Of a DNA stretch of 16,594 nucleotides, positions 1,964 through 13,851 are shown in pieces. Each line of letters starts with the position of its first letter. Positions within the stretch are counted from its first letter, which is position 1. The translations under genes and the position numbers were made by a program. The notes beneath the pieces are model-generated. The model had not been told where the DNA came from. It ran no database searches and was given only the letters and a program-made list of their open reading frames with translations. The DNA comes from Elusimicrobiota bacterium (GTDB taxonomy: Bacteria; Elusimicrobiota; Elusimicrobia; Elusimicrobiales; UBA9959): contig DAIENX010000108.1 of assembly GCA_027340875.1 (NCBI GenBank), positions 1 to 16,594 on the forward strand, read 5' to 3'.

Positions 1964-3097
1964 TTGAGGCTCCTCCTGTGCCTGTTACTTACTGCAAGCG
2001 CGGCGCAGGCCGCCCCGCGCGCGGCGCAGGTCCGCGTCTATTCGCTGTATAAGCTGAAGTCCTTAGACCTGGAACCGGAGGGACCGGCCTCGCAGGCGGC
2101 CGGCGCGCATCTGGCAGCCAAGGCCTCGGTCGCCGTCCACGGCTCCCTGGTCGCCTTCAAGGGCAAGGGCAGGTCCTCGTCCCAGAAAAGAATCACCGCT
2201 TCGGGCGGCATCTGGCTCTCTGGCCCGGCCCTGCCGCGCCGCCTTTACCGCGGCGAACTCTCGTTCTCGGCCAAGAATGGCCGCCTCGTGGTGATCAACG
2301 AGGCGCCGCTGGAGGAATACATAGCGTCGGTGGTCAGCGGCGAGGTCTCGGACCTCTCCGATCCGGAAGCCTACAAGGCGCAGGCGGTGGCGGCCAGGAC
2401 CTATACCCGCATGCACGACACCAACCACTCCGGGGAGGGCTACTCCCTCTGCGACTCCACCCACTGCCAGCTCTACACCGGCTCCGCCTCCGTCAGGGCG
2501 AAGGCCAGGGCCGCCGCCGAGGCCACCCGCGGCCAGATCCTTACCTACAAAGGCGTGCCGGCCGAGACCTATTACCACGCCATCTGCGGCGGCAAGACGG
2601 CCGACATGACCAGCGTCTGGCCTTTCGAGAGCAAGCCGTACCTCGTCTCCGTCAAGGACGGCCCCGCCTCCCGGCCCTATTGCTCCATAGCCCCGGGCTT
2701 CCTCTGGAAGACCAAGATCTATTTCACGGGTCTCACGCGGCTGGCCAGGCAGGCCGGCTGGATAGTGCGCGACGAGAACGCCACGGGCCTGCGCATCACC
2801 GCCTGGGGCCCTTCCGGCAGGGCCGAGAAGCTAGAGATCCGCACGCAGCGCAGGAAGGTCAGCGTCAGCGCGACCGACTTCTATCACGGCATCGGCCGCA
2901 GGGCCGGCTGGCGGGCCGTGCGCAGCTCCTGGTTCAGCATCCACCAGGGCAAGGATTACGTTTTCCTCGACGGCCGCGGCAGCGGCCACGGCGTCGGCAT
3001 GTGCCAGTGGGGAGCCGAGGGCATGGGCCGCAAGGGCTTCACATACCGGGAGATACTGAAGCATTATTACCCCGGCACGGAGATAGAGAATGACTGA
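1964..3097 (+). CDS. SpoIID/LytB-domain lytic transglycosylase with signal peptide
   Basis: LEEYIASVVSGE, KAQAVAARTY, LCDSTHCQLY and GHGVGMCQWGA...ILKHYYPG motifs; TTG start after AAGGAAG. Confidence 0.92.
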   Translation: MRLLLCLLLTASAAQAAPRAAQVRVYSLYKLKSLDLEPEGPASQAAGAHLAAKASVAVHGSLVAFKGKGRSSSQKRITASGGIWLSGPALPRRLYRGELSFSAKNGRLVVINEAPLEEYIASVVSGEVSDLSDPEAYKAQAVAARTYTRMHDTNHSGEGYSLCDSTHCQLYTGSASVRAKARAAAEATRGQILTYKGVPAETYYHAICGGKTADMTSVWPFESKPYLVSVKDGPASRPYCSIAPGFLWKTKIYFTGLTRLARQAGWIVRDENATGLRITAWGPSGRAEKLEIRTQRRKVSVSATDFYHGIGRRAGWRAVRSSWFSIHQGKDYVFLDGRGSGHGVGMCQWGAEGMGRKGFTYREILKHYYPGTEIEND

Positions 3098-3866
3098 CAT
3101 CCAAGCTGCGGTGCTGGGAGTGTTGCAGGGCGCGGGAGAGTTCCTGCCGATCTCCAGCTCGGCCCACCTGGCGCTGGCGCCGCACCTCTTCGGTTGGGAA
3201 TACCAGGGCCTGGCCTACGACGTGATGCTTCACCTCGGCACGCTTCTCGCCGTGCTGATCTACTTCGCCAAGGACTGGCTGAAGATCTTCAGGGACGCCT
3301 TTACCCGCGCTCCTGGCCCCGACGGAAAGCTGCTCTGGCTGCTGATACTGGCCACCGTCCCTGCCGGCGCCGCCGGAGTGCTCCTCAACAAAGCGGCCGA
3401 GACGGCGTTCCGCGATCCGCTGTGGATAGCCTTCAACCTGGTCTTCTTTTCCGTCTTCATCTGGCTGGCGGACCGGAAGCCCGCGCAGGCCCTGTCGGAG
3501 GAGGCCTTCTCCCCCCGGCACGCGCTGCTGATCGGCCTGGCCCAGTGCCTGGCGCTTATGCCCGGCGCCTCCCGCTCCGGCATGACCATAATGGCCGCCC
3601 TGTTCCTGGGCTACCGCCGCGATTCGGCCGCCAGGCTCTCCTTCCTGCTGAGCACTCCGGTCATCCTGGGGGCGGCCCTGCTCGAGGCGAGGAAGATAGC
3701 CCCCGCCCAGCTGGACTCCGCGTTCGCCGTGGGCCTGACCGCGTCTTTCATATCCGGGCTGGCTTTCATAGGGCTGCTGATGTCCTGGGTCAGGAAGCGC
3801 ACGCTGGCCCCGTTCCTGGTCTACCGCGTGCTGCTCGGGGCGGCCATACTGCTGCTGCACGTATAG
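3090..3866 (+). CDS. uppP: Undecaprenyl-diphosphate phosphatase (BacA/UppP)
   Basis: QGAGEFLPISSSAHL, HLGT, PGASRSG and AARLSFLL motifs; hydrophobic; 8-nt overlap with the upstream gene. Confidence 0.96.
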   Translation: MTDIQAAVLGVLQGAGEFLPISSSAHLALAPHLFGWEYQGLAYDVMLHLGTLLAVLIYFAKDWLKIFRDAFTRAPGPDGKLLWLLILATVPAGAAGVLLNKAAETAFRDPLWIAFNLVFFSVFIWLADRKPAQALSEEAFSPRHALLIGLAQCLALMPGASRSGMTIMAALFLGYRRDSAARLSFLLSTPVILGAALLEARKIAPAQLDSAFAVGLTASFISGLAFIGLLMSWVRKRTLAPFLVYRVLLGAAILLLHV

Positions 3867-9421: not shown

Positions 9422-9462
9422 AAAAAGAACCGGCCCCGCATCGCGGGGCCGGCGCTTTCTTT
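9422..9462. terminator. Intrinsic terminator, likely bidirectional
   Basis: CCGGCCCCGC-atc-GCGGGGCCGG stem flanked by AAAAAGAA and CTTTCTTT. Confidence 0.8.
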
Positions 9463-9476
9463 CAGAGAGGAGAAGC

Positions 9477-9683
9477 TTACTGAAGCTTCTTCACGTTAAC
9501 GGCCTTCGGGCCCTTATCGGTATTCTCGGTCTCGAACTCCACTTCCTGGTTCTCCGCCAGGGTCTTGAAGCCTTCGCCGAGTATGGAAGAGTGATGGACG
9601 AAGAGGTCCTTGGAACCGTCCTCAGGGATGATGAAGCCGAACCCCTTCTTGTCGTTGAACCACTTAACTTTACCTTTTGCCAT
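9477..9683 (-). CDS. cspA: Cold-shock protein (CspA family)
   Basis: GKVKWFN, RNP1 KGFGFI, RNP2 LFVH, KGPKA; GAGGT RBS. The paralogue letter cannot be determined. Confidence 0.95.
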
Positions 9684-9743
9684 TTGCTTATTTACCTCTC
9701 TTTAATTGCCGATACTTCAGGGCCGTTCCCGGCCGTTAAAGAC

Positions 9744-9774
9744 ATTATATATAAAAACGCGTTGAGTTTAGCAA
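9744..9774 (-). promoter_or_regulatory. Sigma70-like promoter for the cold-shock gene
   Basis: Minus-strand TTGCTA...TATATAAT (spacer 17-19 nt depending on register). Confidence 0.55.
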
Positions 9775-9787
9775 GGCCGCGGGGCCG

Positions 9788-12334
9788 CTATTCCTCGCTC
9801 CATTTCATATATAGCGGCATCAGCGAGTTGATGGCGTCCGGGTGCCGGCCTATCACGCGCACCGCGAAGTCGTGCCTGCCGCTCTTATAGCACGGCAGGT
9901 CGCCTTTGTAGACGTACGCCTCCCCCATCCTGGCCTCGTTGCGCATCGAGACGGCCCGCCCCTCGCGGAACATGCCGTCCTCTCCTGCCGTGCCCGAATA
10001 TATCTGCACGTCCACGTCCTCGGGTTTCAGGTCCCCCAGCCAGACCACGGCGCTGAGGGGCAGCTTCACCCCGGAATGCACCTCCATCTCGGGCTTGAAA
10101 TGGTCGACAACCACCTTCACGCGGGGCCAGTTGTCGTGCAGCTTTTTGCGCCACCTCGCTATCTCCGCCACGCGCGAGTTGTCCGCGAACCTCTTGGAGG
10201 AGCGGTGCGCGGGCGAGTAGAACTTCTCGTGGTACTCGCGCAGCATGCGGTTGGTGTTGAAGTGCGGCACCAGCTTCTGCACGCAGGCCTTCATCATCCT
10301 GATCCAGCCGTGCGGCAGGCCGTCCTGGCCGCGTTCGTAGTAGAGCGGGGCGATCACCTTCTTTATCAGATTGTAGATGGATTCCGCCTCGACGTAGTCG
10401 CGTTCCTCGTCAGAATGGTACGACTCGGAGCCGCCTATGGCCCAGCCCACGTCAGGTGAGTAGCCCTCCGGCCACCAGCCGTCCAGCACCGACAGGTTCA
10501 TCACGCCGTTGATAGCGGCCTTCATGCCGCTGGTCCCGGAGGCCTCCAGCGGACGTATCGGATTGTTCAGCCAGACGTCGACGCCCTGCACCATGTAGCG
10601 CGCGACGTTCATGTTGTAGTCTTCCACGAAGATGATGCGGTGCTTGAAGCGGGGGTCCAGCGACAGGCGGGCCACCTGCTTGATGAACTCCTTGCCGTGC
10701 GCGTCGGCCTGGTGGGCCTTGCCCGCGAAGACGAACTGGACCGGCATCTTCTCGTCGGTCACAAGCTCCAGCAGGCGCTCGAGGTCGCGCATGAACAGCG
10801 TGGCGCGCTTGTAGGTGGCGAAGCGTCTGGCGAAGCCGATGGTCAGGTACTCCGGGTTGAGCGCCCTGCCCACCTCGTCCAGGACGCTGCGGTCGGCTCC
10901 CAGGCGCGTGTGCTGCCGGGTCAGGCGCTCGCGCACAAGCGTGACCAGCTTCTGCTTGCGGGTCATGTGCGTGTCCCACAGTTCGCGGTCGTTGATATCG
11001 TTGATCTTGGGCCAGTCGCAGGAATCGGGCACGCCGTTCCCGCCGCCTGCGAGGGACTTGCTGTAGAGCTTGTGGTGCTCGTGGCTGATCCAGGAGCAGG
11101 TATGCACGCCGTTAGTTATCCCCTCTATCGGGATCTCGTAGCGCGGCAGCTCGGGCCACAGCTTGTACCACATGTCGCGCGACACGTCGCGGTGCAGCAG
11201 GCTGACGCCGTTGAGGAAGGCGCAGAGGCGCATGGCCACCACGGTCATGCAGAAGCCCATCGAGGTGTGCTCCTCCTTGCCGATCTCGAGGAACTCAGGG
11301 AACGAGAGCCCCAGGTCCTTGACGTAGTGCTCGAAGTACTTGCGCACCAGCTCGAAGTCGAAGTACTCGTTGCCGGCCATCACCGGCGTGTGGGTCGTAA
11401 AGGCCGAGGAGGCCCAGACTATCTCGCGCGCCTCCGCGTAGGAGAGCCCGCGGGTCTTCATCATGTGGCGGATGCGCTCGAACAGCAGGAAAGCGCTGTG
11501 GCCCTCGTTGACGTGATAGACCGTGGGCTCCAGGCCCATCGCGGCCAGCGCCCGGCGGCCGCCGATGCCGAGCACGATCTCCTGGCGGATGCGGTTCTCG
11601 CGGTCTCCGCCGTAGAGCTGCTCGGTTATGGCGCGGGCGGCAGGCGAGTTCTCCGGCAGGTTGGTGTCCAGCAGGAACAGCGAAGTGCGCCCCACCGGGA
11701 CCTTCCAGATGCCCACCTCCACCTTCTCTCCGGCGAGGTCCACTTCGACGCGCAGCGGGTTGCCGGAGGCGTCCTTCACCACCTGCACCGGCATGTTGTA
11801 CCAGTCGTTCTCGGGATAGCGCTCCACCTGCCAGTTGTCGCGGTTGAGCACCTGCTGCACGTAACCCTTGCGGTAGAGCAGGCCTACGCCCACCAGCGGC
11901 ATCCCCAGATCGGAAGCGGACTTGAGGTGATCGCCCGAGAGCATGCCGAGGCCGCCGGAATAGATCGGGAGTCCCTCGCCAATGCCGTACTCCATCGAGA
12001 AATAGGCGACGAGCATGTCCTTGTCCTGCTCCTGGGCGTGCTTGGCGTACCAGGTGGCCTTGTCAGCCATGTAATCATCGAACTTCCTCTTGATCCCGGC
12101 CAGGCGCGAGATGAAGTCCCCGTCCCTGCCCAGCGCCTCCAGCTTCTCCGGCATCAGGGTTCCTAGTATCCATTTAGGGTTGCGGTGAGAGCGGTGCCAG
12201 AGGGCGTCGTCTATGCTGACGAACATCATGATGGCGTCCCAGTTCCACGTGAACCACATGTTGGTGGAAAGCTCATCGAGCGCCTTAAGGCTGTCCGGCA
12301 GGTTGGGGATTACGTTGAAGGATTTAATTTTCAT
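9788..12334 (-). CDS. glgP: Alpha-glucan (glycogen/maltodextrin) phosphorylase, GT35
   Basis: YFSMEYG, YSGGLG, NEGH, FTTHT, ITNGVH, FARRFATYKR and the PLP-lysine motif EASGTSGMK. Confidence 0.97.
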   Translation of the reverse strand: MKIKSFNVIPNLPDSLKALDELSTNMWFTWNWDAIMMFVSIDDALWHRSHRNPKWILGTLMPEKLEALGRDGDFISRLAGIKRKFDDYMADKATWYAKHAQEQDKDMLVAYFSMEYGIGEGLPIYSGGLGMLSGDHLKSASDLGMPLVGVGLLYRKGYVQQVLNRDNWQVERYPENDWYNMPVQVVKDASGNPLRVEVDLAGEKVEVGIWKVPVGRTSLFLLDTNLPENSPAARAITEQLYGGDRENRIRQEIVLGIGGRRALAAMGLEPTVYHVNEGHSAFLLFERIRHMMKTRGLSYAEAREIVWASSAFTTHTPVMAGNEYFDFELVRKYFEHYVKDLGLSFPEFLEIGKEEHTSMGFCMTVVAMRLCAFLNGVSLLHRDVSRDMWYKLWPELPRYEIPIEGITNGVHTCSWISHEHHKLYSKSLAGGGNGVPDSCDWPKINDINDRELWDTHMTRKQKLVTLVRERLTRQHTRLGADRSVLDEVGRALNPEYLTIGFARRFATYKRATLFMRDLERLLELVTDEKMPVQFVFAGKAHQADAHGKEFIKQVARLSLDPRFKHRIIFVEDYNMNVARYMVQGVDVWLNNPIRPLEASGTSGMKAAINGVMNLSVLDGWWPEGYSPDVGWAIGGSESYHSDEERDYVEAESIYNLIKKVIAPLYYERGQDGLPHGWIRMMKACVQKLVPHFNTNRMLREYHEKFYSPAHRSSKRFADNSRVAEIARWRKKLHDNWPRVKVVVDHFKPEMEVHSGVKLPLSAVVWLGDLKPEDVDVQIYSGTAGEDGMFREGRAVSMRNEARMGEAYVYKGDLPCYKSGRHDFAVRVIGRHPDAINSLMPLYMKWSEE

Positions 12335-12434: not shown

Positions 12435-12463
12435 TTGTACAAAAGCCGTTTTTTTTATATGAT
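12435..12463 (+). promoter_or_regulatory. Sigma70 promoter of tRNA-Ala
   Basis: TTGTAC-17 nt-TATGAT about 45 nt upstream of the tRNA. Confidence 0.7.
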
Positions 12464-12507: not shown

Positions 12508-12583
<76 letters not shown>

Positions 12584-12588
12584 GATTT

Positions 12589-12617
12589 AAAGGCCTCGCA
12601 AGAGGCCTTTTGGTTTT
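12589..12617 (+). terminator. tRNA terminator hairpin
   Basis: AAAGGCCTC-GCAA-GAGGCCTTT followed by TGGTTTT. Confidence 0.75.
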
Positions 12618-12649
12618 CCGGATGAGCTAGCCATAATAATGGCTCGCGC

Positions 12650-12793
12650 GGGGGATCGAAAGGCGGAGCCGCGAGGACAGCAGTCCGCAGCGGCGAGCCG
12701 GGGTCGCGACCCGCAGCGGGTGGAGCGGGCAAAGCCCGCGACAGAATTCAGTGTTCAGGCGACGGCGAGCGGAGGAGTCGTGACAGATCCCCC
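12650..12793 (+). other. Structured non-coding element bounded by inverted copies of the tRNA T-arm
   Basis: Closing stem GGGGGATC/GATCCCCC; internal arms 12662-12699 and 12703-12784 folded by hand. Confidence 0.65.
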
Positions 12794-12805
12794 TCACGTC
12801 CACCA
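12786..12805 (+). repeat. Exact 20-bp direct repeat of the tRNA-Ala 3' end (att-like)
   Basis: GATCCCCCTCACGTCCACCA is identical to 12564-12583. Confidence 0.95.
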
Positions 12806-12841
12806 AATTTAAAAGCCCCCCTCAAAGGGGCTTTTAAATTT
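12805..12841. terminator. Bidirectional terminator-like hairpin after the duplicated tRNA end
   Basis: AAATTTAAAAGCCCC-7 nt-GGGGCTTTTAAATTT; pairing extends imperfectly to 12794-12852. Confidence 0.7.
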
Positions 12842-12936
12842 GGCGGGCGTGAAGCGAGACATAATGATGTCTGTCACGGATAAAGCGCATAGCGCTTTCC
12901 CGCAACCCCGACTCAAAGAACCACGGATAAATTTGC

Positions 12937-13851
12937 ATGAAACTACTGCTGGCAGCCCTGGACAACCTGGGGGACACGGTCCTCGCCGTGCCGGTGTACC
13001 TCGCCCTGCGCAGGATCACCGGGGCAGAGATCTCGCTGTGGACCAAGGACTATTCGTCCGGCCTGGCGCCCCTCATCGACGGTTCCCCAGAGATCTTCAA
13101 CTGCGACCCTTTCTGGGACAGTGCCCCGTGCCGCGCCAAAGGGAGCCTGCGCCTTTTCCTGAGCGCGCTCGGAGGCATAAGGGCCGCCGGCTTCGATTCG
13201 GCCGTCATATTGCGCGCCAACTGGCGAAAGAACCTCTCGTGCGCCTTCGCCGGCATCCCCGAGCGCTGGGCCGCCGGCGGCGCCTTCCGCACCCGTGTCC
13301 TGCCGCGCCAGGCCGCAGGCGAGCACATACTGGACTCCTACCGCGCGGCAGTGACGGAGATCACCGGCACGGACCCGGGCGAGCTGCGCTGCTCGCTGAA
13401 AAGGCCGGCCGTCGTCTCTCCCGGCCTGCGCGCCGCCGTGCACCCTTTCTCCGGCAACGCCGCGCGCAATCTTCCGCCCGCTGCCTGGCTCGAGACGATC
13501 TCCGGTCTCCGCGCACGCGGCTTCGAGGTGACCGTTATAGCCTCTCCGGAGGAGAAGGCTTCTTTTCCTCCCGGCGCGGAAGCCGTCTTCTCCTGCGACA
13601 TCGCGCCGGACCTCAGCGGGCTGGCCTCGATAATTTCCGCCGCGTCCCTCTTCATCGGGCACGACTCGGGCCCGCTGCACATGGCGGCCGCGCTGGGCAC
13701 GCCGTCGGTAGGCATAATCCAGGACCTCAAGATACCTGTAATAGGGCCCCGCGGCTCCGGCCCGCTGGAACTGGCCGTATTCTCCAAGGCTCCCGCCGAA
13801 CTTGGGGCCGCACAGATACTGGCGGCGGCCGGCAGGCTTCCCGGGCCCTGA
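12937..13851 (+). CDS. Glycosyltransferase family 9 (ADP-heptose:LPS heptosyltransferase-like)
   Basis: N-terminal LGDTVLAVP, VHPFSG and IGHDSGPLHMAAALGTPSV motifs. Confidence 0.9.
   Translation: MKLLLAALDNLGDTVLAVPVYLALRRITGAEISLWTKDYSSGLAPLIDGSPEIFNCDPFWDSAPCRAKGSLRLFLSALGGIRAAGFDSAVILRANWRKNLSCAFAGIPERWAAGGAFRTRVLPRQAAGEHILDSYRAAVTEITGTDPGELRCSLKRPAVVSPGLRAAVHPFSGNAARNLPPAAWLETISGLRARGFEVTVIASPEEKASFPPGAEAVFSCDIAPDLSGLASIISAASLFIGHDSGPLHMAAALGTPSVGIIQDLKIPVIGPRGSGPLELAVFSKAPAELGAAQILAAAGRLPGP

Follow-up and report, generated by a model that had tools for sequence, protein, structure and literature searches.

A gene-less, strand-specific structured repeat behind tRNA genes of Elusimicrobiota and Patescibacteria: a candidate mobile element built like the tRNA-linked repeats of Escherichia coli

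What is the elaborately folded sequence behind the tRNA-Ala(GGC) gene of an uncultured Elusimicrobiota bacterium, and why does it include an antisense copy of part of that very tRNA? The window analyzed here is a 16,594-nt stretch of contig DAIENX010000108.1. A sequence-only reading of this window described positions 12650-12793 as a multibranched core closed by an antisense T-arm, a candidate strand-specific structure with its own target-matching arms; the strings it quoted are all in place at their coordinates. We find that the window contains one copy of a gene-less family that lies behind many tRNA and tmRNA genes, mostly in Elusimicrobiota and Patescibacteria. In our preferred reading, to which we assign a probability of roughly 0.6, these are non-autonomous mobile elements that lack genes, fold as a single strand and carry arms templated by the target.

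The structured unit behind tRNA-Ala(GGC)

The locus comprises the host tRNA gene, the putative repeat unit and the remains of two further units, in the following order.

12436..12463, plus strand: sigma-70-like promoter match 5' of the tRNA (consensus scan only, 9/12)
12508..12583, plus strand: tRNA-Ala(GGC), the host gene (ARAGORN; Rfam tRNA, 63.8 bits)
12561..12583, plus strand: tRNA tail T54-A76, putative left part of the repeat unit, its left boundary provisionally set after G52 G53
12589..12610, plus strand: terminator-like hairpin 1
12611..12625, plus strand: degenerate antisense copy of the acceptor strand, loosely paired with the tail in the 12561-12784 fold
12626..12647, plus strand: conserved hairpin hp1 (9 pairs, 6 changed on both sides)
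12650..12660, plus strand: antisense arm, with tRNA positions 54-64 in reverse complement (11 nt, exact; source strand 12561-12571)
12662..12699, plus strand: arm A, stems interrupted by invariant purine-rich (GA-type) internal loops
12701..12784, plus strand: arm B, with a near-invariant G.T pair at its base (188/194)
12718..12758, plus strand: nested second repeat module (41 nt) within arm B, replacing a GA dinucleotide
12785..12805, plus strand: tRNA tail repeated in direct orientation (exact over 20 nt from 12786; C at position 56 changed to A)
12806..12843, plus strand: terminator-like hairpin 2
12839..12872, plus strand: beginning of another, truncated unit with antisense acceptor and hp1, in the same order as in intact congener units at this locus
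12873..12914, minus strand: right-end fragment of a sister ('type 2') element, reversed, joined at the base of the second hp1

The antisense arm starts 66 nt past tRNA-Ala. The earlier description is borne out for its exact match to the tRNA and, in the predicted fold, for arm A, for the lower part of arm B and for the closing stem of 8 bp (12650-57/12786-93). Two of its limits had to be redrawn. The core fold at 12650-12793 stands, but the unit does not start at 12650, since the covarying hp1 precedes it; and whereas the base of arm B holds, its inner part (GCGGGC-AAA-GCCCGC) does not belong to the family core, being part of the nested repeat. The motif of the nested module occurs 20 times in the genome of this organism, and the module is present within six copies of the element, always at the consensus GA position; as it begins with G, the base loss at this site is two or, possibly, one. 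The right end of arm B, GTGAC, adjoins tRNA position 56, and the junction begins with CGA or CAA in 93 of 107 cases. Among the homologs, the antisense acceptor pairs at no fewer than six of seven positions in 94 of 194, and a 7-bp hairpin lies 5' of the antisense arm in 85 of the 119 examined over a wide region.

The left part was placed within the tRNA on the basis of tandem units in homologs, which repeat from the T loop, and of geometry aligned with that of the sister element. Taken from this putative left end, 12561, to 12784, the unit is predicted to fold on itself; the element is about 220 nt long and contains no ORF. The junction between hp1 and the type 2 fragment at the right of the locus recurs at a second locus (L099), and an intact type 2 element occupies the orthologous locus of another genome (G023). 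Farther downstream, the window encodes a family 9 glycosyltransferase (12937-13851, plus strand), and the gene behind this tRNA varies among congeners. Elsewhere in the window, the cold-shock protein gene region at 9426-9828 (minus strand) matches Rfam cspA at 42.9 bits, under the gathering score of 78.

The structure is real and non-random. Compared with shuffled sequences, 12650-12793 folds better on the plus than on the minus strand, both as RNA (z of -5.16 vs -2.66) and as DNA (-3.61 vs -1.97), which bears out the proposed strand specificity; for the wider segment 12640-12810, z is -3.44 for RNA and only -1.40 for DNA. An alignment of 22 copies shows two-sided changes at 27 of its 45 pairs, with pairing in 95% of the cells, which exceeds all 500 shuffles and all slid controls, with the proviso that the relatedness of the copies inflates covariation tests. 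Thus, the structured core has both homologs and covariation. The 428 predicted apical loops include 15 GNRA loops, no UUCG loops, 46 GNA triloops and 42 GNYA loops. Apical loops of the GNA and GNYA types are preferred in DNA; judged by such preferences, the loops appear to lean toward single-stranded DNA, and the computed folding energies lean toward RNA. No Rfam family matches across the core at E<=5, as the first reading had surmised; the only match is a weak permuted-tmRNA hit (23 bits, gathering score 47) that extends from the tRNA tail to the second terminator.

A family whose arms follow the resident tRNA

BLAST searches identified homologs in 33 of 36 congeners. A covariance model built from the 22 copies is positive in 51 of 151 genomes of the phylum, among them 6/7 of the same family, 39/45 of the sister family and 0/44 of family f13, where absences are weak evidence given that 19 candidates were scored per genome. 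A pattern scan of species genomes yielded at least 121 loci. Among the matches listed, 80 titled loci belong to Patescibacteria-type genomes (45), Elusimicrobiota (21), unnamed bacteria (9), Gammaproteobacteria (3) and Bdellovibrionales (2), so the occurrence of similar sequences behind tRNAs of other uncultured bacteria, which the first reading had brought up, is now documented. Of the 126 pattern matches listed, 102 lie within 150 nt of the 3' end of a tRNA or tmRNA gene on the same strand, and the covarying core is found at more than 40 tRNA/tmRNA labels; the related genomes behind these counts are not independent, and some loci are possibly counted twice. Phage and plasmid collections contain no match to the element, and viral contigs contain one, a tandem array without a called tRNA.

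Other repeats occur in the same setting. Behind tRNA-Gly and tRNA-Thr of genome G000 (contigs C11, C20 and C79), there is a different class of repeat, in which a short hairpin core lies between an antisense tRNA tail and a copy of the tail, in tandem on C20. Modular intergenic repeats that share hairpin modules with the element family are present on C13, C25, C41, C49, C65, C66, C71, C103, C110 and other contigs of this genome, and these are insertion targets of the sister element. At several Patescibacteria loci (L063, L065, L133, L136), a mini-hairpin of 16-18 nt is inserted in the tail copy right after position 58.

The flanking arms vary with the adjacent tRNA, in accord with the initial proposal. 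Scored against its own tRNA across 102 loci, the arm agrees at 5.8 of 7 positions, compared to 3.76 +/- 0.10 with permuted tRNAs; for the tail copy, the corresponding values are 10.1 of 14 positions and 5.96. The window locus is itself a case in point: its T stem is unlike that of most congeners, and the arm tracks the local variant. At non-Watson-Crick pairs of the tRNA, exact complementarity of the arm to the 3' strand is seen in 19 of 24 cases in the T stem and in 29 of 35 in the acceptor. Arm mismatches comprise 22 G.U and 18 A.C, without G.U bias, and the G3.U70 pair of tRNA-Ala is mostly lost in the arms. The core, unlike the arms, retains its G.T pair in nearly all copies. Because the arm is a Watson-Crick copy even where the tRNA wobbles, it looks templated. 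Judging from these patterns, the arms were probably copied from the target by a polymerase, and the core is likely selected as a shape of one strand. The same wobble-pair test rules out a tRNA-mimic reading, under which the arms would be the tRNA's own 5' strands.

The tail copy is more variable. Ungapped, it matches fewer than 10 nt in 82 of 197 cases and at least 17 nt in 94, and 43 copies extend into the trailer. At positions 59-63, the arm fits the real tRNA better (0.87-0.98) than it fits the tail copy (0.77-0.91), which is often damaged or short. At several loci (L117, L208 and L038), the tail duplication stops at the terminator T-run, and tandem units repeat the tail, the terminator and the core.

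Junctions, movement and the search for an enzyme

The sister element has in common with the tRNA-linked form hp1 and the junction of arms A and B, but its first stem closes on itself and it lacks a target-matching arm. It is present in 43 of 80 genomes of the family. The 134 distinct copies comprise 106 without a tRNA within 450 nt, although short flanks may hide tRNAs near some of these, 22 in antisense orientation to a tRNA and 6 in the sense orientation. GG precedes the element in 44 of 60 parsed ends. We considered the 16 tRNA-near copies with a parsed left end, of which nine fell under the cut-off for rebuilding the junction (at least 12/13 matches); in all the remaining seven, exactly two target bases were lost, and two further junctions at 11/13 matches agree; the rule rests on few junctions, with two pairs among the seven sharing a site. 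The type 2 junctions show no shared core dinucleotide on both sides. The element in the window fits the rule, with G52 G53 retained, T54 T55 lost and the sequence resuming at C56; its left end, therefore, would be at 12561. The sister element occurs on both strands of the T arm, and its use of the antisense T-arm hairpin indicates a DNA target. Because the armless sister element obeys the same insertion rule, it is doubtful that the arm is a guide that finds the target, as the sequence-only reading had suggested.

Under our preferred reading, hp1, arm A and arm B would form a strand-specific three-way junction that is recognized in trans. The element would lodge in the T-loop hairpin of the tRNA at G53|T54 T55|C56, with duplication of the tail, often together with the terminator, such that the tRNA stays whole. 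The antisense arms would arise through fold-back copying with the local tRNA as template, in the course of insertion or afterward. The active form would be a single strand, more likely of DNA than of RNA.

The distribution of the element among related genomes is consistent with movement. At the orthologous tRNA-Ala site, 27 congeners were informative (30 loci were returned, of which two without a tRNA call and one at a contig edge were left out): 9 are filled, 1 contains the sister element, 12 are empty and 5 carry remnants or other repeats, as read by eye. The congener with the sister element, which it carries reversed, is the closest relative. The cores do not sort by genome and sort only slightly by tRNA, and near-identical cores (0.99-1.0) are found at different tRNAs in different genomes. 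The nearest neighbor of a core is at the same tRNA in 6/28 and 6/30 cases and in the same genome in 1 and 2, respectively, which speaks against purely vertical inheritance. The effect of the tRNA on core similarity is small but real (42 and 14 of 1000 permutations), so in-place inheritance accounts for some copies. The patchy pattern could also reflect loss instead of gain. Neither circles nor empty-versus-filled polymorphism within a population nor transposition was observed. Scars that resemble template switching are common at the junctions.

Is there an enzyme that would mobilize the element? A Pfam scan of 78 downstream ORFs revealed varied, largely housekeeping or unassigned proteins, with no recurring mobile-element family and no integrase; among 171 ORFs beside the sister element, which are similarly varied and of which 15 were scanned, there is no protein cluster with more than six members. 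The HUH-type or similar partner proposed initially is unsupported. In the 45 genomes of the sister family, 39 of which carry the element, Y1_Tnp is found in 16, a match to the YazA-like GIY-YIG query in one, and IS110 in three, all of the latter weak and under the cut-off. The same applies to genus g5, with PF01797 in 13 of 30 genomes and the element in all 30, and PF01797 was not found in one genome with 14 copies of the element (G054). HUH/Y1, YazA-like GIY-YIG and IS110 enzymes were rejected as partners, given that their occurrence does not track the element. Loss of target bases is not known from HUH transposition. RVT_1 (PF00078) has no match in the genome of this organism, which is 92% complete, a miss that, like that of any single query or in any incomplete genome, does not equal absence. 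The only two Phage_integrase matches in the same genome have the size of XerC/D, and integrase genes are near 2 of about 150 loci (L097 and L115). The mobilizing enzyme, then, may be encoded away from the element, as a host protein or a rare visiting one, and the family may indicate movement of DNA without a dedicated transposase.

G000 has a pair of small, nearly identical YazA-like GIY-YIG genes that share their flanks (L162, 1465-1746, and L163; contigs C73 and C108), one of them behind tRNA-Gln(TTG) and a structured repeat; the pair may be a strain duplicate in the assembly. On C111 of the same genome, a RAYT-like Y1 transposase (L165, 1474-2115) lies between its own short palindromic repeats, which are unrelated to the element. 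At L097, a phage-type integrase (2500-3852) ends just 5' of a displaced tRNA-Gln tail that still has its complete element, which looks like a tRNA parted from its tail by an island. At L472, an IS110 transposase (921-1865) is located about 230 nt from a sister element, a single case.

The element shares traits with several known classes of mobile DNA and differs from each of them. tRNA-targeting tyrosine-integrase islands and cis-mobilizable elements insert in the T loop, restore the tRNA and often leave a damaged displaced tail. All these features appear to be shared by the element, which, unlike such islands, has no integrase, is only about 220 nt long, occurs at nearly any tRNA and contains internal antisense arms. 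Elements of the IS1111 type insert into palindromes, and the bridge RNA of IS110/IS1111 is, likewise, a structured non-coding sequence with target-complementary segments; by contrast, our element has neither a recombinase gene nor the shared core dinucleotide at both junctions. REP/REPIN-RAYT sequences and miniature derivatives of IS200/IS605 are also short, gene-less, multi-copy hairpins, but the element targets the tRNA T loop, has target-derived arms and is not tracked by Y1_Tnp. The movement of both kinds is believed to proceed through single-stranded DNA, with an enzyme supplied in trans (bioRxiv 10.1101/2024.07.17.603846).

Counterparts in E. coli and alternative explanations

The novelty of the element turned out to be less than first expected because its architecture is shared with the tRNA-linked repeats (TLRs) of E. 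coli. The available part of PMC8144298 lists 22 such repeats, known since 1978 and without known function, in which the last 18-19 bp are identical to the 3'-terminal sequence of the tRNA or rRNA upstream of them; that part mentions neither an antisense arm nor mobility. The TLRs (among them the tyrT repeats or RtT RNA, rttR, RF00391, and RrA/B/F), like the element, are located behind a tRNA gene and terminate with 18-20 nt copied from its 3' end (same source), and the window element has both the position and the 3' identity (20 nt exact). Tandem TLR units may include the terminator (proK, lysQ, lysV), as do those of the element. In K-12, we found that the tRNA-linked TLRs contain an antisense T-stem arm that varies with the tRNA (tyr, arg, lys, pro) and the same GA or TC dinucleotide 5' of GAA as in the element; the proK and tyrV units fold as a multibranch closed by arm and tail, whereas the lysV unit does not.

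The cores, however, are not detectably related at the sequence level: the tyrT locus reaches no more than 5.2 bits with model R1, and RF00391 has no match in the window or in the genome it comes from. The tail copy begins at position 56 in the element and at 58-59 in E. coli, and the element has hp1, with no such hairpin apparent in the E. coli units. By sequence comparison, then, the element matches the TLRs in architecture and positional definition and falls outside the RtT sequence family; the best explanation is that it is their divergent counterpart. In our search of the literature, the element family was undescribed; the antisense arm of TLRs may be found in Egan and Landy 1978, Rudd 1999 or the supplement of PMC8144298.

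The TLRs also suggest the first alternative to a mobile element, namely, that this is a read-through RNA useful to the host, similar to RtT/RrB. Transcription would pass terminator 1 and yield a folded RNA with a CCA end, in which the arm and the tail copy form the closing stem; this RNA would be processed and either bind a protein or tune tRNA maturation. As far as the accessible text of PMC8144298 goes, three rRNA-linked E. coli TLRs are read-through small RNAs that are transcribed, processed and bound by Hfq and CsrA. The strong covariation, the greater stability of the RNA than of the DNA fold, the location of the 102 of 126 matches on the tRNA strand and the full-length read-through fold, in which the arm pairs with the tail copy with a probability of 0.99, all agree with such an RNA. 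Nevertheless, we regard it as rather unlikely. The closing partner that it requires, the tail copy, is often damaged, and the arm fits the real tRNA better; the arms show no G.U bias and mostly do not keep G3.U70; this core is also found in antisense orientation to tRNAs and at a distance from them; and 12 of 27 congeners have an empty site. In 13 RNA sequencing runs, only about 5% of the sequence words were present, and the four runs examined contained only tRNAs of other organisms, which weighs neither for nor against such an RNA.

An element with an RNA intermediate, inserted by target-primed reverse transcription, is still less probable. Offset nicks would account for the two lost nucleotides, and the duplicated tail with its terminator would be the 3' end of a pre-tRNA, which is in keeping with the duplications that end at the terminator T-run in L117, L208 and L038 and with the template-switch-like scars; R2 retrotransposon insertion shows a similar 2-nt loss without target duplication. 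This scheme has to contend with the highly variable length of the duplication, the scarcity of RNA-type loops, the lack of an RVT_1 match in the 92% complete genome and the DNA target indicated by the sister element on the antisense T-arm hairpin. Finally, the notion that the element is the scar of an integrase island, with attL and attR left by an internal deletion and palindromes perfected by replication slippage, is highly improbable and already largely refuted: it would explain why the duplicated tail begins in the T loop and why integrases are near L097 and L115, but one covarying core at more than 40 tRNA/tmRNA labels misfits site-specific integrases, correction of palindromes would erase the invariant G.T pair and the asymmetric loops, no examined copy contains island genes, and the two integrase matches in the genome are of XerC/D size.

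A mobile, folded single-strand element with target-templated arms, thus, remains our preferred reading, and it can tentatively be extended. Possibly, the window element, its sister and the TLRs belong to a broad, undescribed class of gene-less, folded single-stranded DNA modules that insert into hairpins in exchange for two unpaired bases that follow a G and are moved by an enzyme that may be the host's; the tRNA-linked form would rewrite its own arms for each target, and the E. coli TLRs would be the enterobacterial branch. The build of the TLRs recurs here in phyla that are distant and for the most part uncultured, in copies numerous enough for a mechanism to be read from them, and the element offers a testable origin for the TLRs. 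The apparently templated arms, the fixed T-loop junction and the two-base-loss signature of the sister element make the TLR puzzle testable in E. coli K-12. In the rrfB trailer of E. coli (L201), the 5S-linked TLR also seems, by eye, to include a stretch loosely antisense to the 3' terminus of 5S, with several G.U pairs.
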